Shown here one piece after another: positions 5,546-59,521 of a stretch of 59,660 nt of DNA (positions are counted from its first letter, which is position 1; each line of letters starts with the position of its first letter). The notes beneath the pieces were generated by a model. The model had not been told where the DNA came from, did not search any database, and saw only the letters and a program-made list of their open reading frames with translations. The DNA lies in NCBI GenBank assembly GCA_017518975.1, contig JAFWTH010000050.1, positions 1 to 59,660 of the forward strand, written 5' to 3'. This stretch comes from Clostridia bacterium (GTDB lineage Bacteria; Bacillota; Clostridia; Oscillospirales; CAG-272). Position numbers and translations under genes: made by a program.

Positions 5546-5608
5546 GAAATGAAGATAAGCGCCTATATTATCGAAATGTCCGACTTTATCGGAAAAACGG
5601 AGGTATAT

Positions 5609-7366
5609 ATGAAAAGATTTATTTGTTTGTTGATCGCTTCCGTCTTCGTCCTCGGAGGGTGCGCGGGCGGTTACGTCCCGCACGGAGGGAACTATTCTTT
5701 GAGCGACGGAAGATACGTGACTTCGACCTCTATGCCGTACCTTTTGTTAGGCGAAGGCAGGTTCACCGTGGTTAAAGATATCGCCGTGTCGTATCAGCCG
5801 AGCGGGACCGTCCGTCGGGACGGCAATTCCGTCGTTCTTGAAGGCGTCTTTGCCGATGCGGATTTCCGTTATTCATTCGTCCTGACCTCCGACGACACGC
5901 TCCTCTTCGATCTCGGGGCCTCTATCCTTCCTATGAGCGCGTACAATTGGAACGACGGGATGATCTTCACGCTTGCCGACGATACGGCAAACGATACAGA
6001 CGACGGTCTCGACAGGATTGAACAGGTCGAGGGCGTCCCCCCGGAGTTTGTAAATATCGTCATGGAAAACAGATTCAAAGACGTCGCCGCCTTTTCGGAC
6101 AGATTGCTGAAAGTCGAGACGGTATCGTACAGAGAAACGCTGACCGCCGAACATAAGATTACAATGACGGACCTTTACGGCGAACCCCTCGCCGTTTATA
6201 CTGTTTCTTCAGACGACGCGTATTACGTTTCGGCTCTTACGGCGACGGAAGACGGGGGCTTCCTGTTCGTCCTCGGGTTCAACGAATACTCCGAGTCCGC
6301 GGCGAACCGCGACGAACACGCCTCAAGGATCATAAAATGCGACAAAAACGGAGACGTCGTGTTCGATACGCCGCTCAACGGCATCGGCGGCGACTCGCTC
6401 GAATACTGCTTTGAAAAATACGGTCGATATTATTTCTTCGGAGACGATTACGTGCCGGACGTGCGAAATTTCACGCAAACCGACGTGTTTATGGGCTTCG
6501 TAAACAAGGACGGCTCCGAGTTCGGGAGCGCTCGGTTCGGCGGAGGCGACTACGCTCATCTTCTGAACGTCGAGGAGACGGACGACGGTTTTCTCCTGTA
6601 CGTTGACGCGATCTCACCCTCGGGCGATTTTTCGTCAGGTGTGCCCGCCGCCACCGACTGGACGGTCGCGGTAAACTCACAGCTTGAAGTGACGGCAAAG
6701 AGCAGGGAACCCGGGCGCGACTATAATGACCGTCGGATCGGCGAAAGAGAGGGGAAGCCCGTTTTCAGGAGCGATCCCGTCTTCGACGGATTCGACGCGG
6801 GTCTCCCCACGGCGTTCATTGACTACGACGACTTTTATCTGATCGTATCGGAGCACGTCACGGGCGAATACGAAAACACCCCTCCCTATATCAGCGCGAT
6901 CTGGAATTACACCGAAACGGTTTATTCCGGGTACGACGGGGACGGAAATCTTCTGTTCCGGGCTTCCATCGACTCGTCGCCGGATTATGATTCAATGACG
7001 CCCGGGTTGCTCCAGAGAACTTATCCCGAATACTTTGGTCTCGACGCGAGCGGAGGCCTCGACGTGATCGTCTGGCAGATGAGCGAATTCCACTATTATT
7101 TCGGTCTGCTTGAGCATTCCGAAACGGAACGCGACTGGCTGGATCACGAACTGATGGATCTGAGCACGAAGGGAGTCGACGCCGCGACGATGAGGGAAAT
7201 ACTCTCGACCTATAACGTCGGCGAGGACGATATTCATATCGTCCCGTGGCAGAATCCGTTCTCAAGCTATATCCCTCTCGTTTTCATGGGCAATATGACC
7301 GAAGAGGAACGGGCGGAGATGACGGAGCGGTATATCGAAGAAATCAGAGAAATGCTGCTCGGGTGA
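5609..7366 (+). CDS. Lipoprotein of unknown function
   Basis: MKRFICLLIASVFVLGGCAGG signal peptide with a lipobox. RBS ggagg lies before ATG 5609. No recognisable catalytic motifs. Confidence 0.7.
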   Translation: MKRFICLLIASVFVLGGCAGGYVPHGGNYSLSDGRYVTSTSMPYLLLGEGRFTVVKDIAVSYQPSGTVRRDGNSVVLEGVFADADFRYSFVLTSDDTLLFDLGASILPMSAYNWNDGMIFTLADDTANDTDDGLDRIEQVEGVPPEFVNIVMENRFKDVAAFSDRLLKVETVSYRETLTAEHKITMTDLYGEPLAVYTVSSDDAYYVSALTATEDGGFLFVLGFNEYSESAANRDEHASRIIKCDKNGDVVFDTPLNGIGGDSLEYCFEKYGRYYFFGDDYVPDVRNFTQTDVFMGFVNKDGSEFGSARFGGGDYAHLLNVEETDDGFLLYVDAISPSGDFSSGVPAATDWTVAVNSQLEVTAKSREPGRDYNDRRIGEREGKPVFRSDPVFDGFDAGLPTAFIDYDDFYLIVSEHVTGEYENTPPYISAIWNYTETVYSGYDGDGNLLFRASIDSSPDYDSMTPGLLQRTYPEYFGLDASGGLDVIVWQMSEFHYYFGLLEHSETERDWLDHELMDLSTKGVDAATMREILSTYNVGEDDIHIVPWQNPFSSYIPLVFMGNMTEEERAEMTERYIEEIREMLLG

Positions 7367-7374
7367 AACGCAGC

Positions 7375-7490
7375 GTCTTGAAATGAAATGCCCCCGCGCC
7401 GCGGGAGCATGAAATACGGCTTCGCCGTATGAAATATTCTTTGAATATGAAATTCCTCCGGAGCGCGGTTGCTCCGGAGGAATGATTTTT
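7375..7490 (-). repeat. Hairpin array 3: hairpins joined by ATTTCAT (minus-strand reading)
   Basis: atgaaat on the + strand at 7383, 7409, 7429 and 7447. Hairpins are gcccccgcg/cgcgggagc, acggc-ttc-gccgt and tcctccggagc-gcggtt-gctccggagga (7454-7481, followed by a T-run). Lies between the convergent lipoprotein and gyrA genes. Confidence 0.65.
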
Positions 7491-10076
7491 TTATTCTGCG
7501 GGCGTTTCTTCAGTCTCCGGCGTCGGTTCCGTCTCGGGCGGCGTCTCGCCGCCTTCGGGGATCTCGCCTTCGGGCGTATCTTCCTCGGGAAGCTCCTCTT
7601 CCTCGGGCGCTTTTCCGGTGACGGTGAAGTTGACTATCTTTGAGTCGCCGACTCTCATTACGATGACGCCGGACGCCGTTCTGCCGTACGCGGGGATCCC
7701 GTCCGCCGACGTGCGGATGACCGTTCCGTCGTCCGTGATGATAAGGATATCCTCGCCCTCCTCGACGACGGCGATACCGACGAGCTCGCCGGTCTTCGCG
7801 CCGATCTTGTGAGCGCACATACCCTTGATCGCGCGGCCCTTGTTCTCGAACAGCGCGGTCGACATCCTCTTGCCGAAGCCCTTTTCGGTCAGCGTGATGA
7901 GCTTGTGTCCCTCCACCCATTCGGGATCGGACGACACGACCGCCGCTCCGATGATCCGGTCGCCGGGCTCGAGCTTCATCGCGCGGACGCCTCTCGCCGT
8001 CCTTCCGACCGTCGATACCCTCGCCTCGGAGAATCTCGCGAGCAAACCGGTGTTCGCCGCGACCATTATATCGCGTCCGCCGTCCGTCAGAGCGACAAAG
8101 GTGAGTTCGTCTCCCTCGTCAAGGTTGATCGCGATCTTTCCGCCCTTGCGGTTGATCGCGTATTCCTTCAGCGGCGTCTTCTTGATGACTCCGCGGCGGG
8201 TGATCATTATGAGATTTTTCTCTTCCTCGGGCGTGAGCGTGTCGGTCGCGAGCATCGCGGTCACCGATTCGCCCTCGTTGAGGTCGAGCAGATTGACGAT
8301 ATGCGATCCCTTCGCGTTGTAGCTCGCCTCGGGGATGCGGTACGGCTTCGTCGTGTAGACTCTGCCGAGGTTCGTGAACAGAAGCAGGAAATCGTGGCTC
8401 TCGCAGGCGACGACGCGCTCGACGTAGTCCTCTTCCTTCGTCGCGATCCCGCGGCGGCCCTTGCCGCCTCTCGACTGCGCGGCGTAAGCGTCCGCCTTCT
8501 GCCTCTTGATATATCCGCCGTGCGTCAGGGTGATGACGCAGCGGTGGCGTTCGATGAGATCCTCGAGCATGATCTCGTCGTGGTATTCGACGATCTCGGT
8601 GAGCCGTTCGTCGCCGTACTTGTCGCGCACGGCTATAAGCTCGTCCTTGATGATCCCCTTGAGTTTCTCGGGATCAGCGAGGATCGATCTCTTTTCGTCG
8701 ATAATCGCGTACAGCTCGACGAGCCTCTCTTCGACCTTCTGTCTTTCAAGACCGGAGAGCCGTCCGAGCGTCATAGAGACGATCGCCTGCGACTGCTCTT
8801 CCGAAAGCGAGAACCGCTCGGACAGGCGGATCTTCGCCGTCGGGGTGTCTGGCGAATTGCGGATGATCGTGATAACCTCGTCGATGTTGTCCGTCGCGAT
8901 CTTGTAGCCCTCGTTGATGTGCGCCTCGTGAAGCGCGCGGTCAAGCTCGAACTGCGTTCTGCGCCTTGTGACGTCGGTGCGGAAGTTTATGTAGTTCTGC
9001 AGGATCTGGCGGAGCGAGAGGATCCTCGGCTCGCCGTCGACGAGCGCGAGCATATTGATCGCGCACGTGTCCTGAAGCTGCGTGTATTTATAGAACTGGT
9101 TGAGGATGACCTGACCGTTCGCGTCTTTTCTGTAGTCGACCGTGATGCGGAGCCCCGCCTTGCCCGACTCGTCGCGGATATCGGTCACGCCCTCGATCTT
9201 CTTGTCGCGGACCTGCTGCGCCATCGCCTTGACGAGCTCCGACTTGTTGACCATGTACGGGATCTCGGTGATGACGATCTGTCTTTTCTCCTCGTCGACC
9301 TCCGCCTTCGCGCGGACCATTACCTTGCCTCGTCCGGTGGAGTACGCCTCGTAAATGCCCGACGTGCCGAAGATCGTCGCTTTGGTCGGGAAATCGGGTC
9401 CCTTGATGAATTCCATCAGCTCCCTGACTCCCGCGTCGGGATGATCCATCAGATAGACGGTCCCGTCGATGACCTCGGTGAGGTTGTGCGTCGGGATATT
9501 CGTCGCCATACCGACGGCGATGCCGACCGAGCCGTTCACGAGAAGGTTCGGGAATTTCGTCGGCAGAACAGACGGCTCACGCCGGCTGTTGTCGAAGTTG
9601 GGTACCCAGTCGACGACCTCCTTACCGATGTCCGCCATCAGCTCCTCGGAGATCTTCGACATCCTCGCCTCGGTGTACCTGTACGCCGCAGCTCCGTCCC
9701 CGTCTATCGAGCCGAAGTTTCCGTGGCCCTGAACGAGCGGATATCTGTACGAGAAATCCTGCGCCATACGGACCATGGTCCCGTATACCGCAGCGTCGCC
9801 GTGGGGGTGATACCGTCCGAGAACGTTACCGACGGTCGTCGCGGATTTGCGGAACGGCTTGTCGTGCGTCAGCCCGTCCTCGAACATCGCGTACATAATA
9901 CGCCGCTGTCCCGGTTTCATTCCGTCGCGCGCGTCCGGAAGGGCGCGCGAAACGATAACGGACATGGAGTACTCGAGGAAGGATTTTTTTACCTCCCTCT
10001 CCATATTCACCGGTACGATCTTCTGATCCGGGAATTCGATCGGAGTGTCGTCTCTCTTATGATTATTAAGTGCCAT
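7491..10076 (-). CDS. gyrA: DNA gyrase subunit A
   Basis: Family sequence throughout ([27 protein letters not shown]). Acidic, Pro/Glu-rich C-terminal tail. Start taken at MALNN (ATG 10076). Confidence 0.97.
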
Positions 10077-10113
10077 TTTTACCTGCCCAATCAAATATAG
10101 TTATCGGGTCCCG

Positions 10114-33499: not shown

Positions 33500-35311
33500 T
33501 TACGCCTCGTCCTCGTACCACTGACTCTGTGAGTCGAACATCTTTTTGTATTCGCCGTTCTTCGCCATCAGCTCGTCGTGAGTGCCGGTCTCGGCGATCT
33601 TTCCGTCCTTCATCATGATTATCCGGTCGGCGAGACGGACGGATCCGAGACGGTGAGTGACGATGAACGACGTCTTGTCGCGCGAGAGTTCGGCGAATCT
33701 TCCGTATATCCTCGCCTCCTCGATCGGGTCGATCGCCGCGGTGGGCTCGTCGAGGATGATGATACTGCTGTCGCGGTAGAATCCTCGCGCTATCGAGACT
33801 CTCTGAACCTGTCCCCCGGACAGACCCACGCCGTCGTCAAATTCACGCGACAGCATAGTGTCGAACCCGTTCGGCAGCCATTCCTCGTCGGGAGAGAAGC
33901 CCGCCATGGCGCACGCTTCCCTCAGATTTTCGTCCGTACTCTCTTTTTCGTACTGACCTATGATGAGGTTTTCCCTGAGCGTCAGCGCGTAATGCGGATA
34001 ACGCTGATAGACCGCCGACAGGCGGCGGGCGACGGATGAAAACGATATCTCCCTCGTGTTCCAGCCGCAGATCTTGACGTCGCCTCCGTCGGGTCGGTAA
34101 TACCCGATGAGAAGTTTGATGAGCGTCGATTTTCCGCTTCCGTTTTCGCCGACGATTGCGACCGTCTCCTTCGGTTTCACCGAGAAGGATACGCCGTCGA
34201 CTGCGGGCGTCTCCGTATTAGGGTAAGAGAATTTCACGTCGCGCACGTCGATCCCGATATCGTACGGAAGCTCGACGTCCTCGCCGTCGTTCTCCGGGAA
34301 ATCGAGATATCTGACGTAATTCTCGATAAAGGGCAGATCTTGTGACGCCGTGGCAAACGACCCGTAGAACAACTGGTGCAGCTTATCCTCGATCATTCCG
34401 ACGGAAGTGAAGACCGCGGCGAACTCGCCTATCGTGATCCTTCCGATGAGAAGGAAGCGGAAGAGCATATAGTAAACTCCGAGCCGTCCGACGAAGGTCA
34501 GGAGCTGCGCCCCGAAGAAAAGCCACCGCTGTTTTGACTCCGTCTTTCGGTCGAGTTTCGTCAGCCTGCGCCACAGACTGCTGAACGAGCGGAAGAAATA
34601 CCAGAATCCTCCGAGCAGGCGCGTCTCCTTGAGAAATTGCTGCGAGGTGGCGCATTCGAAATAGTGGCCCGAAAGACGCCTGTCCGGCGCCGCCTTGTCC
34701 TCTTTGTCTCGATATATCTTTTTCACGAGGAACTGATACAGCAGCGTGGGTATAAAGATCATCAGAAGCGCCGCGACGAGCCAAGGATCGCGTTGTACCA
34801 GATAGACGGACGTGATAACGAAATACGGGATATGGTACAGGACGATCTGCTTGAGCGTTGAGAGCAGCGAGCGCGCAGAGTCCGCTCCGGAACCGGCTTT
34901 TTCGATATCGTCGAGCTTGTCGGTATCCTCGAACAGGATCGGCGGGATCTTCGCCATCTTGGAAAGACGCTGTTCGGTCTGCCTGTTCTCGGCGCGATAG
35001 GAGAACGCGGTATCGGTCCTGTTCGCGATCTGACTGAGGATCGCCGAAAATATGAACGTGCCGGCGTATGCCGCTATGAGAACGATGATGCCGGTCACGG
35101 GTCCGCCGCCGTTTTCATAAACGGTTGTCACCCCGTTGAAAACGCCTTCGAGAACGTAGATCTGCGCGGCCTGAAGGATCGCCTGAACGACGATTATGAT
35201 ACAGCCGATCGAGAAAAGCCCGGGCGCCGCGCCGATTATTACGGGCAGCGTCTTTTTTACGCACTTGAAGAAACCGACGCGCGGCTTCTTATCTTTGTTG
35301 TTCTTCTTCAC
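33500..35311 (-). CDS. ABC exporter, fused permease-ATPase (heterodimer partner B)
   Basis: Six-TM N-terminal half, Walker A GENGSGKST, signature LSGGQVQR, Walker B IIILDE. Confidence 0.9.
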   Translation of the reverse strand: MKKNNKDKKPRVGFFKCVKKTLPVIIGAAPGLFSIGCIIIVVQAILQAAQIYVLEGVFNGVTTVYENGGGPVTGIIVLIAAYAGTFIFSAILSQIANRTDTAFSYRAENRQTEQRLSKMAKIPPILFEDTDKLDDIEKAGSGADSARSLLSTLKQIVLYHIPYFVITSVYLVQRDPWLVAALLMIFIPTLLYQFLVKKIYRDKEDKAAPDRRLSGHYFECATSQQFLKETRLLGGFWYFFRSFSSLWRRLTKLDRKTESKQRWLFFGAQLLTFVGRLGVYYMLFRFLLIGRITIGEFAAVFTSVGMIEDKLHQLFYGSFATASQDLPFIENYVRYLDFPENDGEDVELPYDIGIDVRDVKFSYPNTETPAVDGVSFSVKPKETVAIVGENGSGKSTLIKLLIGYYRPDGGDVKICGWNTREISFSSVARRLSAVYQRYPHYALTLRENLIIGQYEKESTDENLREACAMAGFSPDEEWLPNGFDTMLSREFDDGVGLSGGQVQRVSIARGFYRDSSIIILDEPTAAIDPIEEARIYGRFAELSRDKTSFIVTHRLGSVRLADRIIMMKDGKIAETGTHDELMAKNGEYKKMFDSQSQWYEDEA

Positions 35312-37143
35312 GAGATCGCCTCCTCTCCGGGGGCGTCCTCGTACCAGCTCTTCTGAGTCGAGAACATCTCGGCGTAAATGCCGCCCGCCTTCACGAGCTC
35401 GTCGTGCGAGCCCGATTCCGCGACGGCTCCGCCGTCGATGACGAGGATCCGGTCGGCGATGCGAGCCGCGCCGAGTCGGTGGGTGATGAAGACCGCGCTC
35501 TTGCCCTCCGTCACTTTCTTGAACAGAGCGTAGACGGCGCTCTCAGCGATCGGATCGAGCGCGGCGGTCGGTTCGTCAAGGATCGACACGGGACGATTGC
35601 CGTATAAAGCGCGCGCGATGGCGACCCTCTGCCACTCCCCGCCGGAAAGATCGACGCCGTCCGTCGCCGCCTTTCCGAGCGGAGTGTTGACGCCGGAGTG
35701 GAGTTTTTCAAGCGCTTCGGTGAGGCCGATCTCCTCGGTCACGCGCAGGACGTCCTCGTCGCTGTCTCTGTTCACGTCGCCCAGCTTGATCGCGTCGCCG
35801 TAAGGGATCTGATATTTTGCGAAATCCTGAAAAACGACGGAGAACAACCCCTTTATCTCGGCGTACGTGAAGTCGCGCAGGTTTTTCCCGCCGATCAGAA
35901 TATCGCCCTCGTATTCGTCGTACAGACCGGTGAGCAGCTTTGTGATCGTCGTCTTACCCGCGCCGTTCACACCGACGAAGGCGCAGTGTTCACCCTCGTT
36001 TATAGTGAACGAGCAGTTTTTGAGTATGTAGCGGTCCGTGCCGGGATACTTGAAGGAAACGTCTCGGAACTCGATCTTGCCGAAATTGAATCCGCTCATA
36101 TCGGCGGGCGGATCGAGCGCGCCCTCCTGCTCCTCAAGCTGAGAGAATTCCGACAGGTCTCCGAGGTTCTTTGTCGCCTGAGCCATCCATCTGACGTCCC
36201 ACGGGATGCCGCCCCCGACTATTCCCACCGCGCGAAGCAGAAGATTGGCGAAGCCGACGAAGAAGCCGGCGGAGAGTTCACCTCGTCCGACGGCGAACAC
36301 AAGAGCCGTCATTATCGCGGCGTACATCACCCACGAGAGGGACCGTATAAAATTGTCTCTTCTCGAGTTTCTGACCGTGTTTTTCAGATTCTTCCGGTCC
36401 ATTTCGAGCTTCGTTTTTTTCCATTTTCCGAATATGAAAGGAGCGTACCCGAACGTCGAGCGTTCCTCAAGATAGTCCTTTGCCGAGAGGAAAGCCTGAT
36501 ACTTGCCGGCGTATCTTCCGTCTTTTTCAACGTTGAAAAACGTCTCGTAATCCTGAAGACCCGATCTTACGGCGAGAAAAACGGCGGGAATAACGATACC
36601 GACCGCGATGAGTCCGCCCCACCATACCTTGAGAAACACGGAGGAGATCGTAATGACGAGAAACACCCATCGATAGGCGATCCATATTACCCGTCCTCCT
36701 CTCTCGAGCATCTTGCCCGCCGGTTCGCTGCACGCGCGGCCTATGAGGTCGTACGTTTTGCTGTCCTCAACGTAACGGTACTTGATGCTTGCCTGTTTTA
36801 TCAGAAAGACCTCTTTCGTGACCGAATAAACTTTCTCTCGCAAACGGGCAAACGTGATATCTTCAAACTGATAAACGGCTGAATTCAAGAAGAACGTGGC
36901 GAACATGAAGACGAGAGGCATGATGATCGCCGATTCCGGCGCTTCGCCCCGAATGACCGAAAGAGCGGTATCAACAAACGACGCCGTGGTAAAAAGTTGA
37001 AGATACGGGTACACGGTCTCGAGCACGTTGGCAAGCAGATCGAGGGCGGTCCAGAGCGGAGTGACACGGAACAGGAAAAGGAAGCAGTCGATCAGCCGCC
37101 ATTTGCCCCGTTTGAGCTCAGGCAGCTTTTTTTCTTTTTTCAA
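35308..37143 (-). CDS. ABC exporter, fused permease-ATPase (heterodimer partner A)
   Basis: Walker A GVNGAGKTT, signature LSGGEWQR, Walker B VSILDE. TTG start after aaaggag. A 4-nt overlap with the downstream partner. Confidence 0.88.
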   Translation of the reverse strand: MKKEKKLPELKRGKWRLIDCFLFLFRVTPLWTALDLLANVLETVYPYLQLFTTASFVDTALSVIRGEAPESAIIMPLVFMFATFFLNSAVYQFEDITFARLREKVYSVTKEVFLIKQASIKYRYVEDSKTYDLIGRACSEPAGKMLERGGRVIWIAYRWVFLVITISSVFLKVWWGGLIAVGIVIPAVFLAVRSGLQDYETFFNVEKDGRYAGKYQAFLSAKDYLEERSTFGYAPFIFGKWKKTKLEMDRKNLKNTVRNSRRDNFIRSLSWVMYAAIMTALVFAVGRGELSAGFFVGFANLLLRAVGIVGGGIPWDVRWMAQATKNLGDLSEFSQLEEQEGALDPPADMSGFNFGKIEFRDVSFKYPGTDRYILKNCSFTINEGEHCAFVGVNGAGKTTITKLLTGLYDEYEGDILIGGKNLRDFTYAEIKGLFSVVFQDFAKYQIPYGDAIKLGDVNRDSDEDVLRVTEEIGLTEALEKLHSGVNTPLGKAATDGVDLSGGEWQRVAIARALYGNRPVSILDEPTAALDPIAESAVYALFKKVTEGKSAVFITHRLGAARIADRILVIDGGAVAESGSHDELVKAGGIYAEMFSTQKSWYEDAPGEEAIS

Positions 37144-37334: not shown

Positions 37335-37563
37335 AAAAAAAGTGCGCAGCGTGAGCCGCGCACCGAAAAACGCACAACTCCTATTGCTGCGACACAATTT
37401 TCAAGGTGGGGTAACAGGAGCTTCCCGAACCCGCCCGGAGCGGCGCCTATACGGCATATTTTCGTTTCTCGTCCTTGCCTTATCTATGTAAGCGTTGAAA
37501 CGGAGCCTGCATTTTACCAAAGTAAAAAGCACGCTTACAAATCCAAATATGAAATTGTGCCGC
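37335..37563 (-). ncRNA. Structured RNA element B (paralogue of the leader at 52479-52633)
   Basis: Own promoter TTGAAT (37598-37593), 17 nt, TATAAT (37575-37570). Closing helix tgcggcacaattt/aaattgtgtcgca. Inner helix gtaagcgt/acgcttac. Hairpin ttttac-tttg-gtaaaa. Terminator gtgcgcggctcacgctgcgcac + U7 (37363-37335). The 3' ~55 nt are nearly identical to element A. Confidence 0.6.
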
Positions 37564-37623
37564 AACCACATTATAACACGCAGCCGTCTTTTATTCAATA
37601 GCGGGATACGCGTCGGGTCAAAG

Positions 37624-49520: not shown

Positions 49521-52238
49521 ATGAACGACGGTATATCTTTCGGAAAAAGAGAGGAAAGGCGGAGCCCGGATCGCACGGCGTTCGCGCCGCGCACGGGAGG
49601 TCTGACGGAAGCCGAGGCGGAGGAGTCTCGCCGTCTTTGGGGCAGAAACGAACTGACCCGTAAGAAAAAGCCGTCGCTTGCCGCTGACTTCTTCCGCAAT
49701 CTTTCCGACCCGATAATAAGGATTCTCCTTTGCGCCATGGGAATTAACGCGGCGCTCACTTTCAGAAATATCAACTGGGTCGAGATGGGCGGGATCGCGT
49801 TTACCGTGCTCACCGCCACGCTCGTTTCAACGATATCCGAACACTCGTCTTCTGCGGCGTTCGAAAAACTGGAGCGGGAGACGAAAACGGCGGAATTCAC
49901 CGTGATACGGGACGGAGAGTCAAGGCGCGTACCGTCCGGCGACGTCGTAAAAGGGGATCTGATCGTCCTCGCCGCCGGGCAGGTCGTGCCGTGCGACGGA
50001 GTGGTCGTCGACGGCGTCGTGAAGGTCGATCAGTCCTCTCTGACCGGCGAATCCCGTCCCGCGGAGAAAAAGCCGTCCGCCTCGCCCGGAGAAAAGATCA
50101 AGGCGGGCGGAGGGGACGCCGCCGATCCCGGACTCGTGCTCGCGGGATCGAGCGTCGTTTACGGGGAATGCCGCGCCGTCGCCGTCGCCGTCGGAGACGC
50201 GACGGCATACGGGAAGATCGCATCGGAGCTTCAGGTGCGCGAGGAGCCCAGCCCGCTCAAGGAAAGACTGAAAAAACTCGCCGTTTCGATCAGCAAAATC
50301 GGATACGCGGCGGCGGCGGTCGTCGCCCTCGCGTATATTTTCAACGAGTTCGTGATCGGCGCGGGATTCGATCCCGCCGTGATAGGCGCGCGCTTGTCGG
50401 ACTTGCGGTTTCTCTCGTCGACTCTTCTCCGCGCGCTTACGGTAGCCGTTTCGGTCGTAGTCGTCGCCGTTCCCGAGGGACTTCCGATGATGATAACGGT
50501 CGTGCTTTCCGCAAATATGAAAAAGATGATGAAAAACGGCGTCATCGTGAAAAAACTTGTGGGGATCGAGACGGCGGGAAATATGAGTCTGCTTTTTACA
50601 GACAAGACGGGGACTCTGACGACCGGGAGGATGACCGCAGAACGCGTTCTCACGGGAGACGGATCGTTCACGCCCGGGGAGGTAAAAAGACAGGCGGGGG
50701 TATTCCGGTATATCGCCGCCGCGGCGGCGTTCTGCTCCCCGCCGGACGGCGGGAACGCGACGGGGAGGGCGGCGGACTCCGTGGCGGGAGCCGCTCGCCC
50801 GTCGGGAATGAGGGGGATATCCCGCCTGCCGTTCGATTCCGCCCGGAAATACGCCGCCGCGCTCGTTTACGACGAAAAGGCGGGAGAAGCCAGGACGCTC
50901 ATACGGGGCGCTCCGGAACTCGTCATTCCGCGCTGTTCATCGTTTACCGCGGCGGACGGGACGTCCCTGCCTCTGCGCGAAAAGGGTTCCGCGGCGATCG
51001 CCTCGGAGATAGCCGGGGAGGAGGGGGACGCGGTGCGAGTTCTCGCTCAGGCGACCGGACCCGCCGACGCATATGAAAAACTCACGCGTGGTGAGATCCC
51101 GGGCGGCCTGTGCTTCACGTGCGCCTTTTTTATAAAGGACGAGATAAGAAAAACGATCCGCGCCTCGGCGGACGAGTGCCGAGAAGCGGGGATCAAGGTT
51201 ATAATGATAACGGGGGACGGAAAAAACACCGCCTGCGCGGTCGCGGAAGCGGCGGGCCTTCTCCCGAGACGGCGGCGGGACGACTCCGCGGTGCTGTCGT
51301 CCGTACAAATCGGGGCGATGAGCGACGAGGCGCTTGCCGCCGCGCTTCCGGGGATATCGGTCATATACCGCGTCACGCCCGGGGACAAAAGCCGTCTCGT
51401 CAGAGCGGCGCGTCTCGCGGGTCACGTAGTCGGGATGACGGGCGACGGGGTGAACGACGCCCCCGCGCTCCGCGCGGCGGACGTCGGATTCGCTATGGGG
51501 AGCGGAGCGGAAGTTGCCAAAGAGGCGGGCGACGTCGTGATCTCGGACGACGATTTTTCGTCGATCACACGCGCCGTTCTTTACGGCAGGACGATCTTCG
51601 AGAGCATACGGAAATTCATAACCTTTCAGCTCATAATGAACCTCTGCGCGGTCGGCGTCTCGGTGATCGGACCGCTGATCGGAGTCAAGACGCCAATCAC
51701 GATCCCGCAGATGCTGTGGATCAACGTAATAATGGACACGCTCGGTTCTCTCGCTTTCGCGGGAGAAGCTCCGAGGAAGTCCTTCATGAAGCGCGCGCCG
51801 CGCAGACGGGAGGAACCGATCCTCTCCCGGGACACGGTCAGGACGATCGTCTCGCGCGGGCTTTATTCTCTCTCTTTTTTCGTGTGGTTCCTGACTTCTC
51901 ACTTCACAAAGGAGCGTTTCGGGGACGGGGATAAGGAATTTCTCACGGCGTTTTTCGCGCTGTTCGTCTTTTTCGGGATCGCGAACGCGATGATCGCCCG
52001 GTGCGACAGGATAAATATCCTTGCGGGGATGTTTTCGAACGCGCCGTTTGTCCTCATAATGGCGCTCGTCGCGACGGTCCAGCTTTTGCTGATCGGATTC
52101 GGCGGAGAGGCGTTCCGTACCGTTCCGCTGTCCCGGGGCGATCTTTTGCTCACCGCCGCCTTCGCCGTCACCGTCTTTCCGGCGGATCTTGTTTTCAAAC
52201 TGTTCCGTATGCGCCGAAGGCGCAAAAATACGGCGTAA
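49521..52238 (+). CDS. Cation-transporting P-type ATPase (P2, Ca2+-type)
   Basis: DKTGTLT, TGDGKNTA, MTGDGVNDAPAL motifs and a cation-ATPase N-terminal domain. Confidence 0.92.
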   Translation: MNDGISFGKREERRSPDRTAFAPRTGGLTEAEAEESRRLWGRNELTRKKKPSLAADFFRNLSDPIIRILLCAMGINAALTFRNINWVEMGGIAFTVLTATLVSTISEHSSSAAFEKLERETKTAEFTVIRDGESRRVPSGDVVKGDLIVLAAGQVVPCDGVVVDGVVKVDQSSLTGESRPAEKKPSASPGEKIKAGGGDAADPGLVLAGSSVVYGECRAVAVAVGDATAYGKIASELQVREEPSPLKERLKKLAVSISKIGYAAAAVVALAYIFNEFVIGAGFDPAVIGARLSDLRFLSSTLLRALTVAVSVVVVAVPEGLPMMITVVLSANMKKMMKNGVIVKKLVGIETAGNMSLLFTDKTGTLTTGRMTAERVLTGDGSFTPGEVKRQAGVFRYIAAAAAFCSPPDGGNATGRAADSVAGAARPSGMRGISRLPFDSARKYAAALVYDEKAGEARTLIRGAPELVIPRCSSFTAADGTSLPLREKGSAAIASEIAGEEGDAVRVLAQATGPADAYEKLTRGEIPGGLCFTCAFFIKDEIRKTIRASADECREAGIKVIMITGDGKNTACAVAEAAGLLPRRRRDDSAVLSSVQIGAMSDEALAAALPGISVIYRVTPGDKSRLVRAARLAGHVVGMTGDGVNDAPALRAADVGFAMGSGAEVAKEAGDVVISDDDFSSITRAVLYGRTIFESIRKFITFQLIMNLCAVGVSVIGPLIGVKTPITIPQMLWINVIMDTLGSLAFAGEAPRKSFMKRAPRRREEPILSRDTVRTIVSRGLYSLSFFVWFLTSHFTKERFGDGDKEFLTAFFALFVFFGIANAMIARCDRINILAGMFSNAPFVLIMALVATVQLLLIGFGGEAFRTVPLSRGDLLLTAAFAVTVFPADLVFKLFRMRRRRKNTA

Positions 52239-52380
52239 GCCGTATATCATACCGTGCGGAGCGCGGTATATCATTCGCCGTCAGGCGTATATCATGCCCG
52301 CCCATTTCGGGGGCGGGTATATCATTTTTCGGTTTCTTCATCAACGCCGCCGTAGGGAGGCATCCCTTTGATGCCTCCGT
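52231..52380 (+). repeat. Hairpin array 5 (TATATCAT linkers), left inverted repeat of the AMP-ligase islet
   Basis: tatatcat at 52244, 52268, 52289 and 52319. Hairpins are acggc-gtaa-gccgt, accgtgc-gga-gcgcggt, cgcc-gtca-ggcg, cccgccc-atttc-gggggcggg and ggaggcatc-ccttt-gatgcctcc (52357-52379). Confidence 0.75.
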
Positions 52381-52445
52381 GAAAGATATGCGGTATCGTT
52401 ATTTACGGTCTGTAGGGTTGCCTCTCAGGCAACCGCAAATTACTG

Positions 52446-52651
52446 TTGATTTTTCTCGCACGATATGCTAAACTGAACCTGCGACACAAACGAATATTTC
52501 TTTGCGTAAGTGTGTATTTTTACTAACGGTAAAAATGCATGCTCCTTATGCATACTTATGCAAAGGAATCGTTTGTGTCGCAGCAACGAAGCAATGCATT
52601 TTTCGGTGCGTGGCTTCGGCTGCGCACTTTTTTATTGTGAGGAAAGAAAAA
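52446..52651 (+). promoter_or_regulatory. Promoter plus structured leader element A with terminator (attenuator/riboswitch-like)
   Basis: TTGATT (52446), 17 nt, TAAACT (52469). 15-bp helix 52479-52493/52569-52583. Inner helix 52500-52510/52555-52565. Hairpins at 52516-52536 and 52535-52553. UUCG-loop terminator 52606-52627 + U6. RBS gaggaaag at 52639. Confidence 0.65.
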
Positions 52652-54391
52652 ATGGCAGAAAACATTATGAAAGAAGTAAAATTTATAGACTACTATAACG
52701 GAGCGATAGAAAAAAGCGATTCTTTACCCAAAGGGAACGAATATGATTTTTTGCTTGAGAGAAATAAATCTCATATGCGCGAAACGGCATTAACCTTCGG
52801 GAAAAAGAATATTTCTTTTGAAGAGTTACACGAAAAGATTGACGAGTACGCCAGAGCTCTTTATCATTACGGGGTTAGAAAGGGAGACTATATCGGCGTA
52901 TGTGTTGCCAATACTCCCGAATCCGTCTACTTGGTTTACGCTCTTAACAAATTAGGCGCTGTAATGGTGGGCTTGAGTCCATTGAATAACGAATACAAAA
53001 TGGTTCGAGATATCGAATTGACGCAACCGAAAATGATTTTTACATTGGATTTTATGTATTCAACAATCAAGAAAGCATGTGCAGAATACAGTATAAAACC
53101 AATTCTTTACTCGCCGTTGCTTTCAATTAAGAATCCAATTATAAAGGGACTATATAATTTTAAGCAACACAAAGAAGGTAACCTCCTTTCATCAAAAGAA
53201 AACCGACTGGATAAAATCATCAAAAGCGACAAGTTATCAAACGTTGAGTATTCAAAACATATTAACGGAACATGTACTAACATAATGTTTACCGGCGGAA
53301 GCAGCGGAGTGCATAAAGGAGTTATGCTCGACGGCAACGGCCTGAATTGTGTCGTAAAAGCACTCGACCATGTTTTGGTTTTAGAACCTGGAATGGTTCA
53401 TCTGGGAAATATCCCTTTCGGACATATGTGTTTCGGAAGATTGGTGTTGCATTACGTTCTATGTAAAAACGCTACATATGCATTAACACTCAAAGCAATG
53501 CCTCAAGATTTTTTAGATGAAATGATAAGAGTTCATGCAAACGGCGCAATGGGAGGACCGGTGCATTGGGAAGCACTTATTGATAATCCAAAATTGAAAA
53601 AAGGGTGCTTGGGTGAATTGATCCAGCCTTTATCCGGGGGCGAATTGTTTAAACCTCAGAGACTTAAACAAGCAAATGAAGCAATTAAACATGCAGGTTG
53701 CAAAGCAGAGATCGGTAACGGTCTTGGATCTACCGAAATGTGGGCTCCGACACATGTATGCGTTGGAGGACGAAATACCTCCGGGACCATAGGATATGAA
53801 TTACCTTTTGTCCATTCAAAAATTGTTGATCCAATAACATTTGAAGAAGTTCACGACGGGGAAAACGGATTACTGCTTGTCAACGGTCCGGGAATGATGT
53901 TGGGATATTTTAAAAACGAGAAAGAAACAGAATCGGTTTTTTGTTTTGACGAAAGCGGAACAAAATGGTATAACACAAAGGATATCGTGAGAAAGCTACC
54001 GACCGATGAATATGAGTACATAGGTCGTATAAAAAGGAACTTCGTTTCAGGCGTTGACAATATTTACCCAGAACAAATAGAACAACTGTTAATACAGATA
54101 CCTGAAATTCGAGAAGTTGCAGTTACGCCGATTCCTGATGAGAATGAACAGCATTTGCCTAAATATCATATCAGATTGTCTGAGGAGAATTGCGATAAAG
54201 CGAAAACTGAAGCAAGTATTGTTTCGATAGTTGAATCAACTTTGGGAAGAACGGCTGTGCCTGGTTATATTGAATACTATGATAAACCATTGCCTCGAAC
54301 AGATAACGGAAAACTAGATGTTACATTGCTTAGCCAAAAAGATATAGACTCTATCCAGGATAAAGACCGGTATAGAACTGCTTTCAGATGA
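52652..54391 (+). CDS. ANL-superfamily adenylate-forming enzyme (AMP-dependent synthetase/ligase)
   Basis: FTGGSSGVHKGV (AMP-binding core motif), GNGLGSTEM, YNTKD...GRIKR. About 35 % GC versus ~58 % in the flanks. Confidence 0.85.
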   Translation: MAENIMKEVKFIDYYNGAIEKSDSLPKGNEYDFLLERNKSHMRETALTFGKKNISFEELHEKIDEYARALYHYGVRKGDYIGVCVANTPESVYLVYALNKLGAVMVGLSPLNNEYKMVRDIELTQPKMIFTLDFMYSTIKKACAEYSIKPILYSPLLSIKNPIIKGLYNFKQHKEGNLLSSKENRLDKIIKSDKLSNVEYSKHINGTCTNIMFTGGSSGVHKGVMLDGNGLNCVVKALDHVLVLEPGMVHLGNIPFGHMCFGRLVLHYVLCKNATYALTLKAMPQDFLDEMIRVHANGAMGGPVHWEALIDNPKLKKGCLGELIQPLSGGELFKPQRLKQANEAIKHAGCKAEIGNGLGSTEMWAPTHVCVGGRNTSGTIGYELPFVHSKIVDPITFEEVHDGENGLLLVNGPGMMLGYFKNEKETESVFCFDESGTKWYNTKDIVRKLPTDEYEYIGRIKRNFVSGVDNIYPEQIEQLLIQIPEIREVAVTPIPDENEQHLPKYHIRLSEENCDKAKTEASIVSIVESTLGRTAVPGYIEYYDKPLPRTDNGKLDVTLLSQKDIDSIQDKDRYRTAFR

Positions 54392-54464
54392 TTCCAAAAA
54401 ACAATTATTCGGTTTGGGTAAGATCGTACGGCAAAGCAAGTCACAAAAGCAATTCCCATTTTGA

Positions 54465-54495
54465 AGTTGCGTCATTTCCGGCGCAACTTTTTATT
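54465..54495 (+). terminator. Intrinsic terminator of the AMP-ligase gene
   Basis: agttgcg-(10-nt loop)-cgcaact followed by tttttatttt. Confidence 0.6.
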
Positions 54496-54581
54496 TTACG
54501 CCCTTTATAATTACGAAAGGGTTTTAAGTGCCTAAGACAATTAAGATGCGGAGGGCTGAGAGCCCTCCCCCTATAGGCTCA

Positions 54582-54776
54582 AATGAAGAAACCGGACCTT
54601 TGGAGACGGAGGCATCAAAGGGATGCCTCCCTACGGCGGTATCAATAAAGATCCCGCCAAAATGATATACCCGCCCCCGAAAGGGGCGGGTATGGTATCC
54701 CGCTTGGGCGGGATGATATACTCCTTCGGAGTATGATATACCGCTGACGCGGTATGAGATACTGCCTGCGGCAGTA
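54582..54776 (-). repeat. Hairpin array 6 (TATATCAT linkers, minus-strand reading), right inverted repeat of the islet
   Basis: atgatata on the + strand at 54662, 54713 and 54733, with variants at 54754. ggaggcatc-aaagg-gatgcctcc at 54609-54631. cccgccccc-gaaa-ggggcggg. Inverted copy of 52296-52380. Confidence 0.75.
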
Positions 54777-57718: not shown

Positions 57719-57794
57719 GGGTGAATGATGGGGCTCGAACCCACGACCTCCAGGGCCACAACCTGGCGCTCTAGCCAACTGAGCTACATCCACC
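57719..57794 (-). tRNA. tRNA-His (GTG)
   Basis: Cloverleaf folded by hand. Extra G-1 paired with C73. Anticodon loop TTGTGGC. Confidence 0.9.
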
Positions 57795-57829
57795 ATGGGT
57801 CGAGGAGCTCGGATCGCGATCTCCCCGGA

Positions 57830-57903
57830 CGTACCTTGGGGGATTCGAACCCTCGACCTACTGCTTAGAAGGCAGTTGCTCTATCCTGCTGAGCTAAAGG
57901 TAC
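57830..57903 (-). tRNA. tRNA-Arg (TCT)
   Basis: Acceptor GTACCTT/AAGGTAC. Anticodon stem ACTGC/GCAGT, loop CTTCTAA. One A-C mismatch in the T stem. Confidence 0.85.
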
Positions 57904-57977
57904 TGGAGCGGGTGATGGGAATCGAACCCACATGACCAGCTTGGAAGGCTGGTGTTCTACCACTGAACTACACCCGC
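57904..57977 (-). tRNA. tRNA-Gly (TCC), CCA encoded
   Basis: Acceptor GCGGGTG/CACCCGC, anticodon loop CTTCCAA, T-loop TTCGATT. Abuts tRNA-Arg with no spacer. Confidence 0.9.
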
Positions 57978-59447: not shown

Positions 59448-59521
59448 GGAGGCGTAGCTCAGCTGGTCAGAGCGTTCGGTTCACATCCGAGAGGTCATGG
59501 GTTCGAGCCCCCTCGTCTCCA
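59448..59521 (+). tRNA. tRNA-Val (CAC)
   Basis: Acceptor GGAGGCG/CGTCTCC. Anticodon stem TTCGG/CCGAG, loop TTCACAT. No encoded CCA. Confidence 0.88.

Follow-up and report, generated by a model that had tools for sequence, protein, structure and literature searches.

A candidate terminator-antiterminator switch in an apparently undescribed leader RNA family of gut and rumen Clostridia

The DNA analysed here, hereafter the window, is the whole 59,660-nt contig JAFWTH010000050.1 of a Clostridia bacterium (GenBank assembly GCA_017518975.1; Oscillospirales, CAG-272), and the element in question is the leader at 52446-52654, directly before a gene for an adenosine monophosphate (AMP)-binding, acyl-CoA-ligase-like enzyme. 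This leader is probably a cis-acting 5' RNA that governs read-through of its own intrinsic terminator through mutually exclusive helices. Comparison of homologues shows four conserved predicted pairings that exclude one another in the promoter-proximal leader before the gene, namely strand X with strand Y, Y plus the bulge J with a 3' tail, the tail with the 5' arm of the terminator (T5), and T5 with the 3' arm (T3); that there is an effector, and in which direction the switch regulates, is what we infer. In kind, the element would be a transcription-attenuation leader and an orphan riboswitch candidate, a known kind of element represented by a new family. A promoter lies upstream, an intrinsic terminator stands between promoter and co-oriented gene, and a conserved, covarying helix is mutually exclusive with that terminator. 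There is also a predicted helix, linked to the sensor, in competition with the antiterminator, subject to caveats of ascertainment and of a non-significant swap test that are detailed below. The family appears to be previously undescribed, as it matched neither Rfam 15 nor anything in limited literature searches.

An earlier note, made from the letters of the window alone, had described a promoter, a 15-bp and an 11-bp helix and an apical hairpin in this region, all of which were found in place when the sequence of 52200-52900 was read again. The parts of the leader and the regulated gene are as follows (MFE, minimum free energy; P1-P3, helices from the base to the apex of the hairpin).

52446-52474, + strand: sigma-A type promoter, with -35 box TTGATT (52446-52451), a 17-nt spacer and -10 box TAAACT (52469-52474), read from the sequence
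52479-52493, + strand: 5' strand of P1, CTGCGACACAAACGA, pairing with 52569-52583 over 15 bp with 100% complementarity
52494-52499, + strand: 5' bulge or internal loop ATATTT (N-AAUAU in the family), facing GAA at 52566-52568, from family alignments
52500-52510, + strand: 5' strand of P2, the variable inner helix, CTTTGCGTAAG, pairing with 52555-52565, from sequence and a partner-swap test
52512-52523, + strand: X, the 5' strand of the apical hairpin P3, GTGTATTTTTAC, from the MFE fold and family-wide pairing
52529-52540, + strand: Y, the 3' strand of P3, GTAAAAATGCAT, with X or X' as alternative partners, from sequence and from covariation of alignment column 212 with both
52541-52549, + strand: J, a 3' bulge, GCTCCTTAT, with CUCC at 52542-52545 complementary to the purine block of the tail, from family alignments
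52555-52565, + strand: 3' strand of P2, CTTATGCAAAG, from sequence and the MFE fold
52569-52583, + strand: 3' strand of P1, TCGTTTGTGTCGCAG, from inverted-repeat analysis
52584-52603, + strand: tail, the putative switching strand, with the purine block GAAGC (52588-52592) and X' ATGCATTTTT (52594-52603), from sequence and pairing analysis
52588-52617, + strand: predicted antiterminator, GAAGCAATGCAT (52588-52599) paired with GTGCGTGGCTTC (52606-52617) around the loop 52600-52605, from the MFE fold
52605-52633, + strand: intrinsic terminator, stem 52605-52614 / 52619-52628 of 10 pairs, TTCG loop, U-run 52628-52633, from a terminator scan
52639-52654, + strand: Shine-Dalgarno sequence GAGGAAAG (52639-52646) and ATG (52652) of the regulated gene, from sequence
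52652-54391, + strand: regulated gene for the AMP-binding (acyl-CoA-ligase-like) enzyme of 579 amino acids (PF00501, PF13193)

The promoter has an extended -10 TG in its spacer (52466-52467) and agrees with the sigma-70 consensus in no more than 8 of 12 positions, which is why a generic promoter scan did not list it. Within the hairpin, P2 comprises 11 bp including one G-U pair, and GTATTTTTAC (52514-52523) pairs with GTAAAAATGC (52529-52538) at the apex. The second of two apical hairpins proposed earlier, ATGCAT at 52535-52540 and 52548-52553 around the loop GCTCCTT, can likewise be read in the window, but it is specific to this copy and its place is taken elsewhere in the family by a single-stranded 3' bulge. 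The terminator was also correctly placed, with its TTCG loop and T6 (52628-52633) before the ribosome-binding site, although it has 10 pairs and not 9. As a whole, the 180-nt leader RNA has an MFE of -75.1 kcal/mol, which was reached by none of 200 dinucleotide shuffles (z = -8.3). The segment ATGCATTTTT at 52594-52603 is exactly complementary over 10 nt to AAAAATGCAT at 52531-52540, and a complement of at least 10 nt between the hairpin and a shuffled downstream segment arose in 0.86% of 5000 shuffles; taken alone, this rarity is suggestive, not decisive.

The evidence for a regulatory function comes from the family to which this leader belongs. It counts 31 distinct homologues from Oscillospiraceae, Acutalibacteraceae and other Clostridia metagenome-assembled genomes (MAGs) and from gut and rumen metagenomes, scoring 73-154 bits with covariance model (CM) R1, which was built on 27 non-redundant members. 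The first search pattern, composed of the segments conserved between the window and locus L002, was scanned over species-representative genomes and gave 18 matches, 5 of them due to chance and 13 clear homologues (Oscillospiraceae, Acutalibacteraceae and unclassified Clostridia MAGs of human gut, rumen and deer gut). A slightly relaxed pattern scanned over metagenomes added 18 homologues among 58 matches, the other 40 being chance matches; these were removed by inspection and with the CM. The same kind of scan over IMG/VR returned only two chance matches, inside coding DNA, and the plasmid collection gave no match. Members found by pattern score 83-154 bits, all except L028 reaching at least 118. 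Reverse strands score 16-41 bits against 115-154 for forward strands, which, together with the many G-U pairs, indicates that the transcribed strand matters. Four members are independent of the pattern: L089, found upstream of a ligase that was located by protein homology, L097 and L098, found with BLAST, and a second copy in the window, found with the CM.

37336-37598, - strand: second copy of the leader family including its promoter (CM R1, 37566-37336, 73.5 bits, E = 4e-14)

This second copy has the promoter TTGAAT-17-TATAAT (37598-37570, minus strand), a hairpin insertion of ~80 nt, the tail AGGAGTTGTGCGTTTTT and its own terminator, and lies outside the search pattern. Its Y contains four A's and its X' is GCGUUUUU, with a G-U at the X' pair. 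A CM search with filters off found no further copies in the window.

Members of the family share one layout, which runs from promoter through P1, the bulge N-AAUAU, the variable P2, P3, the 3' bulge J and the closing strand of P1 to the tail and the terminator. The promoter lies 4-8 nt 5' of P1 in nearly all of them, mostly with an extended -10 TGn; P1 measures 11-16 bp and the unit ~155 nt. P3 has the consensus GYAUUUUUAY pairing GGUAAAAAUGCA, J that of YNCUCCWYUUUG, and the tail that of AGCAA-N-GGAG-N3-4-GCAUUUUUC, in which (GGAG)-N-(A/G)UGCAUUUUU is the predicted switching part; most members have GGAG as the purine block where the window copy has GAAGC. The terminator is GC-rich, usually with a CUUCGG loop, and a U-run follows. 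At every checkable locus, a promoter lies just 5' and a co-oriented gene with a Shine-Dalgarno sequence just 3', usually 12-25 nt past the U-run, which bears out the earlier description of the element as a leader. The leader of the nearest relative, L002/L009, is nearly identical to that of the window in promoter, tail, terminator and Shine-Dalgarno sequence and carries compensatory changes in P1, whereas its inner helix differs entirely in sequence and keeps its pairing.

The earlier note also took the leader to be structured, and P1, the inner helix and the terminator do covary across the 31 homologues. In the CM alignment, both sides have changed in 10 of the 12 pairs of P1 and in 6 of the 10 of the terminator, each with 99% of cells paired, while P3 (94% paired) is mostly invariant or changed on one side only. 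Taken together, the 34 pairs are formed in 97% of cells; sliding the partners by 1-3 columns lowers this to 28-63%, and none of 500 shuffles matches the observed values. P2 cannot be aligned by column and was therefore tested by partner swapping, in which native pairs averaged -15.2 kcal/mol and swapped pairs -6.6 (0 of 2000 permutations). P2 thus differs completely in sequence between members and always pairs.

The tail has two predicted partners, which exclude each other. A helix overlooked in the earlier note joins the tail (GGAG...GCAU; consensus GGAGYURUGCAU) to the 5' arm and loop of the terminator (GUGYGUAGCUUC), and because it excludes the terminator it would act as an antiterminator. 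It appears in the per-sequence MFE folds of the window copy and of about half of the members. In the window it is predicted at -15.2 kcal/mol against -14.1 for the terminator; across the family the two are nearly isoenergetic, the terminator being favoured by a mean of 2.4 kcal/mol. Family-wide, 91% of its cells are paired and 4 of its pairs are double-changed, the 12 double-changed cells being reached by 12 of 500 shuffles. Compensations include GUGAGGCU/AGUCUCAC in L021, UUAU/AUAA in L008, GGGGC/GCUCC in L013 and GAAGC/GCUUC in the window. In the partner swap, native combinations averaged -13.5 kcal/mol and swapped ones -11.6 (0 of 2000), and by this measure the antiterminator is partner-specific.

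Y plus J (AAAAAUGCAU..GCUCC) can pair with the tail as well, with energies of -13 to -19 kcal/mol in all members and 91% of cells paired. Since this pairing competes for the tail without touching the terminator, it would act as an anti-antiterminator. Its core is the alternative pairing of 52594-52603 with 52531-52540 reported earlier, which is exact, is kept in all members and has one column that changes with both partners. The two mutually exclusive folds proposed on its basis are thus supported, with the difference that the alternative pairing misses the terminator itself and competes for the tail. In L089 and L098, the U of AAAAAUGC in Y is replaced by C, and in exactly those two both X and X' have changed from A to G; columns 64/212, the X pair, read AU in 19 sequences, GU in 6 and GC in 2, and columns 212/288, the X' pair, read UA in 28 and CG in 2. 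This three-way compensatory change at Y supports the predicted anti-antiterminator, and members found without the pattern, such as these two, are the more informative ones here. In L097, an A of Y has become G and faces U in both partners. By nearest-neighbour sums, which omit the pseudoknot penalty and the cost of reach and bend, opening P3 costs ~7 kcal/mol and the anti-antiterminator returns ~16. The CUCCUU loop had been matched earlier to the Shine-Dalgarno sequence; that match amounts to 5 pairs including a wobble, weak and generic, and the conserved partner of CUCC is the GGAG of the tail, so that sequestration of the Shine-Dalgarno sequence by CUCCUU was dropped.

These pairings can be arranged into the following mechanism. 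Transcription would start a few nucleotides before P1, and the long hairpin (P1, the N-AAUAU bulge, P2, J and P3) would fold first. With P3 closed, the tail could form the local antiterminator before the 3' arm of the terminator emerges, the terminator would be blocked, and RNA polymerase would enter the gene 12-25 nt downstream. The default, in which P3 is intact and the antiterminator present, would accordingly be ON. If X were displaced from Y, with the single-stranded CUCC of J serving as a toehold, the tail could be captured by Y and J, leaving the terminator free to form and the gene OFF. The OFF trigger would be whatever exposes Y and J or stabilises the pseudoknot of J/Y with the tail. 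Because the partners of the tail are mutually exclusive and its capture needs X off Y, P3/J would be the module at which the choice is made. Its effector could be either a small ligand or some RNA-binding factor, between which the evidence does not discriminate.

Several points weigh against this switch. The partner swap for the anti-antiterminator was not significant (220 of 2000), and as 27 of the 31 sequences owe their discovery to a pattern in which Y and X' are fixed, the invariance of these strands is in part ascertainment and uninformative. The three-way change in L089 and L098 may go back to one ancestral event. As long as P1 and P2 stay formed, the anti-antiterminator would be a pseudoknot that reaches about 25-30 bp up the stem across a linker of 5-9 nt, so that the stem would have to melt in part or bend sharply at the conserved bulge. 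The putative 'aptamer' lacks a multi-helix junction, and few of its unpaired nucleotides are conserved. The next gene lies 90-260 nt away at four loci (L013, L014, L018 and L020), and the downstream genes are so heterogeneous that no ligand suggests itself. Finally, the support for the switch is comparative throughout.

As to the effector, one possibility, entertained tentatively, is that the leader is a true small-molecule riboswitch, a special case of the proposed switch in which a metabolite bound at P3/J or at the J/Y:tail pseudoknot shifts the balance between antiterminator and anti-antiterminator. Firmicutes riboswitches typically have such a platform of terminator, antiterminator and anti-antiterminator, sequence is conserved in J and in the P3 loop, at least two copies stand before unrelated genes in one 60-kb window, and the leader precedes three AMP-ligase subfamilies of at most 33% identity; elsewhere, orthologous ligases are accompanied by PlsC-type acyltransferases and DegV, a hint of a lipid-related signal. 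However, a multi-stem junction or obvious binding pocket is missing, the switching helices already explain most conserved nucleotides, the lipoproteins, Zn-ribbon proteins, ATP-binding cassette (ABC) exporter and small proteins downstream share no pathway, and in other genomes the orthologous ligases are under protein regulators (HTH_3 or WYL). A narrower version, that this is a new riboswitch class for a metabolite of lipid pathways or the envelope (fatty acid, acyl-CoA or acyl-AMP) working by toehold-mediated strand exchange in the apical hairpin, is unlikely; it was considered because the leader recurs before the three ligase subfamilies, lipoproteins and the MsbA-like ABC exporter pair. 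Alternatively, the same switch could answer to a macromolecule, such as an RNA-binding protein at P1/bulge or P3/J, in the manner of PyrR at the pyr anti-antiterminator, a small RNA (sRNA), a tRNA, or a 30S subunit on the GGAG of the tail. This is likewise possible without being the expected outcome: the long regular hairpin with its one conserved bulge N-AAUAU and conserved P1 (GCGACACAA/UUGUGUCGC) resembles a protein site more than an aptamer, CUCCUU and GGAG mimic anti-Shine-Dalgarno and Shine-Dalgarno sequences, and a heterogeneous regulon would suit a global factor, yet no regulator gene is consistently linked at the loci examined and no known protein-binding RNA motif was recognised, with the T-box, RAT and PyrR-site families unmatched in Rfam. 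A K-turn at the 5' bulge was rejected since the GA/AG consensus is not conserved.

Two other explanations do without a switch in cis. The unit of ~155 nt enclosed by a promoter and an efficient-looking terminator could be a stand-alone sRNA gene whose CUCCUU targets other mRNAs in trans, at their Shine-Dalgarno sequences, its proximity to a gene being incidental. CUCC is complementary to any Shine-Dalgarno sequence, and the next gene is 90-260 nt off not only at the four loci named above but also after the second copy in the window. We regard this as quite improbable: the next gene is co-oriented at every checked locus, in most with its Shine-Dalgarno sequence 5-15 nt past the U-run, CUCC has a conserved partner in cis, and a conserved, partner-specific antiterminator would have no purpose in an RNA meant only to terminate. 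A quasi-palindrome acting at the DNA level (a miniature inverted-repeat transposable element (MITE), recombination site or cruciform), perfected by template-switch repair and carried on a horizontally acquired cassette, deserves hardly any credence. It would explain a 105-nt near-perfect inverted repeat in a cassette of 37-42% GC within a ~60% GC genome, flanked by 150-nt inverted repeats, and an inner helix wholly replaced between the window and L009 with self-complementarity kept. However, many pairs are G-U, for which the opposite strand has A-C, scores fall by ~100 bits on the reverse strand, and conservation extends past the palindrome into promoter, tail, antiterminator and terminator. 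There are no target-site duplications, no identical multi-copy spread and no plasmid matches, and phage records give only two unverified virome contigs. In particular, the element does not look like a MITE, as there are only two copies in 59.7 kb, which differ greatly, the inner helix differs between close relatives, and the signal is strand-specific.

Among known systems, the S-box (S-adenosylmethionine (SAM)-I) leaders of Firmicutes resemble the proposed switch in several respects: they are 5' leaders with their own promoter and an intrinsic terminator directly before the regulated gene, their antiterminator uses the 5' arm of the terminator, a third helix from the sensor domain captures the 5' strand of the antiterminator, and multiple copies per genome stand before different genes. 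In contrast, RF00162 is absent from all Rfam output, E-value mode included, with no similarity in sequence or structure; the sensor here is one long hairpin and that of SAM-I a four-way junction, and the anti-antiterminator here would require strand exchange in the apical hairpin and form a pseudoknot. The PyrR-dependent pyr attenuators of Bacillus also have three competing structures, in which an anti-antiterminator stabilised by the protein leads to termination, and a hairpin with a conserved bulge or loop, a possible protein site in the present case; the leader described here has no PyrR binding-loop consensus and no pyrimidine genes downstream, and no linked regulator gene was found. In preQ1, ZTP, fluoride and SAM-II riboswitches, the 3' tail forms pairs with an unpaired stretch in a hairpin that precedes it (here CUCC:GGAG and Y:X') and this pairing competes with the expression platform, but there is no Rfam match, and the partner here sits high on a hairpin of ~100 nt and overlaps the P3 helix. 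T-box leaders likewise have a long 5' hairpin that is bulged near the base and carries an internal loop on the 3' side, followed by competing terminator and antiterminator; here, however, T-box sequence, UGGN bulge, specifier loop, S-turn and Rfam T-box match are lacking, the antiterminator has no 7-nt bulge, and what lies downstream is ligases, lipoproteins and others, not aminoacyl-tRNA synthetase or amino-acid genes. Gut-1 RNA (RF01706; PMC2864571) shares the genome and environment, and copies of it flank the leader-ligase cassette, but it consists of three short hairpins spaced by UGAAAU/UGAUAU, and no Gut-1 match overlaps 52446-52651.

That the leader is unclassified, as the earlier note supposed, agrees with the searches made. 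At gathering thresholds, Rfam 15 yielded no family on the motif in the window or at 13 homologous loci; its matches in the whole window were tRNAs and two Gut-1 RNAs only. In E-value mode, 52300-52750 and 8 other members gave only sub-threshold eukaryotic microRNA-hairpin models and noise, with no family recurrent. In a limited literature search, the motif strings were absent from papers in any relevant context and keyword searches brought up nothing relevant; the strings were also absent from the first 200 of the 408 supplementary files of Fremin & Bhatt 2021. Two other ideas about the leader were set aside. A U-A-U triple helix of X, Y and X' is a poor fit, as the polarity of CUCC:GGAG is antiparallel to Y and would be unsuited to a Hoogsteen third strand. 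A leader peptide from TTG at 52502, in frame with the ligase ATG at 52652, appears coincidental, P2 varying among members in length and sequence with no conserved start.

Some features of individual leaders are recorded here as observations. Directly 5' of the leader promoter, at 52413-52434, lies a hairpin GGGTTGCC-TCTC-AGGCAACC that is kept in L002/L009 with a compensatory change of T:A to A:T (GGGATGCC...GGCATCC). The P1 strands (52479-52493 and 52569-52583) are similar to the terminator arms (52605-52628), and in L010 GCUACACA is present in the 5' strand of P1 and again in the 3' arm of the terminator; across members there is no covariation between P1 and terminator, L022 and L025 having identical P1 and different terminators. 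The members L097 (MT835845.1, 2074-2231) and L098 (MT837627.1, 2901-3060) come from human-faeces records labelled 'UNVERIFIED: Bacteriophage sp.'. In L097, YicC, methionine gamma-lyase and a metallo-beta-lactamase-fold protein are encoded nearby, and as these are housekeeping genes the record is probably bacterial DNA; in L098 a tyrosine integrase lies upstream. On the metagenome contig of L067, a thiamine pyrophosphate riboswitch (2078-2190, 58.4 bits) lies ~1 kb from the family member.

The ligase controlled by the window leader falls under every NCBIfam cutoff, with fatty-acid--CoA ligases as its best matches. A close homologue, P0001, also has 579 amino acids and aligns over 100% of the query. 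The nearest one, in L002/L009, a goat-omasum Clostridia MAG, is 88% identical and has the same synteny and a homologous leader. Homologues of at most 72% identity (L003, L005, L006, L007 and P0002) lie beside a divergent HTH_3 gene or other genes, and a CM search found no leader beside them, which indicates that the leader is not simply inherited with the ligase. Leaderless orthologues (L003, L005, L007 and L090-L096) adjoin divergent HTH_3 or WYL regulator genes or sit in operons; the latter contain a PlsC-type acyltransferase (PF01553), a conserved ~200-residue protein (194-204 amino acids) and DegV, a neighbourhood that gives a weak hint of a fatty-acid or lipid role for the ligases.

Genes downstream of other members are diverse. 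Three subfamilies of AMP ligases with at most 33% identity to one another are represented by the window/L009, L022/L077 and L044/L061/L073. Lipoproteins or secreted proteins follow the leader in L010, L015, L017, L025, L031, L034 and L097, and Zn-ribbon proteins in L048, L082 and L098; the protein downstream of L067 has a similar Cys-rich N-terminus and no Pfam match. The others are small proteins and, ~190 nt downstream of the second copy in the window, the ABC exporter gene pair (35308-37143 and 33500-35311, minus strand; Pfam). The leaders of L073 (296-520) and L077 (4060-4258, minus strand) are near-identical and are followed by 17 identical first codons (MAEEKKLTGFPSIDKPW), while the ligases themselves are only 31% identical. 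Promoter, leader and 5' gene end thus behave as a portable module recombined onto different genes.

In the window, the leader and ligase form a cassette (~52400-54600) of 37-42% GC, against ~56-67% in its surroundings, with a P-type ATPase gene on one side and valS on the other. Inverted repeats of ~150 nt (52223-52380 and 54606-54765; 80-84% complementary) enclose it, and each of their arms contains a Gut-1-like hairpin array with UGAUAU punctuation and a GGAGGCATC...GATGCCTCC hairpin. Gut-1 (RF01706) scores 53.3 bits on the right arm (54690-54765, + strand), over threshold, and 33.7 bits on the left (52223-52297, minus strand), below it. The cassette looks horizontally acquired, or as though it had been inserted, between convergent genes, into a Gut-1 element. 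A further Gut-1 RNA (7381-7458, 60.1 bits) lies between the convergent genes 5549-7366 (+) and 7491-10094 (-). Gut-1 RNA was known only from human-gut metagenomes, without a known host (Weinberg et al. 2010, PMC2864571), and is found here inside a Clostridia genome of ~60% GC. Downstream of valS are three tRNA genes (57720-57977, -) and a fourth (59448-59521, +), a cluster that also occurs in L009.

Oscillospiraceae, Acutalibacteraceae and related Clostridia are abundant in gut and rumen, yet they have received little experimental study and few of their regulatory RNAs are known. The leader would mark a regulon of acyl-CoA-ligase-like enzymes, lipoproteins, Zn-ribbon membrane proteins and an ABC exporter in these bacteria, and seems to act as a portable promoter-leader module before different genes, some of them horizontally acquired. 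As it is compact (~155 nt), with four competing strands for which compensatory mutants are easily designed, it should be a convenient system for termination in vitro. If no effector exists, the family would be one more orphan attenuator motif; identifying a common effector, on the other hand, could uncover a new signal or regulator in gut and rumen Clostridia.

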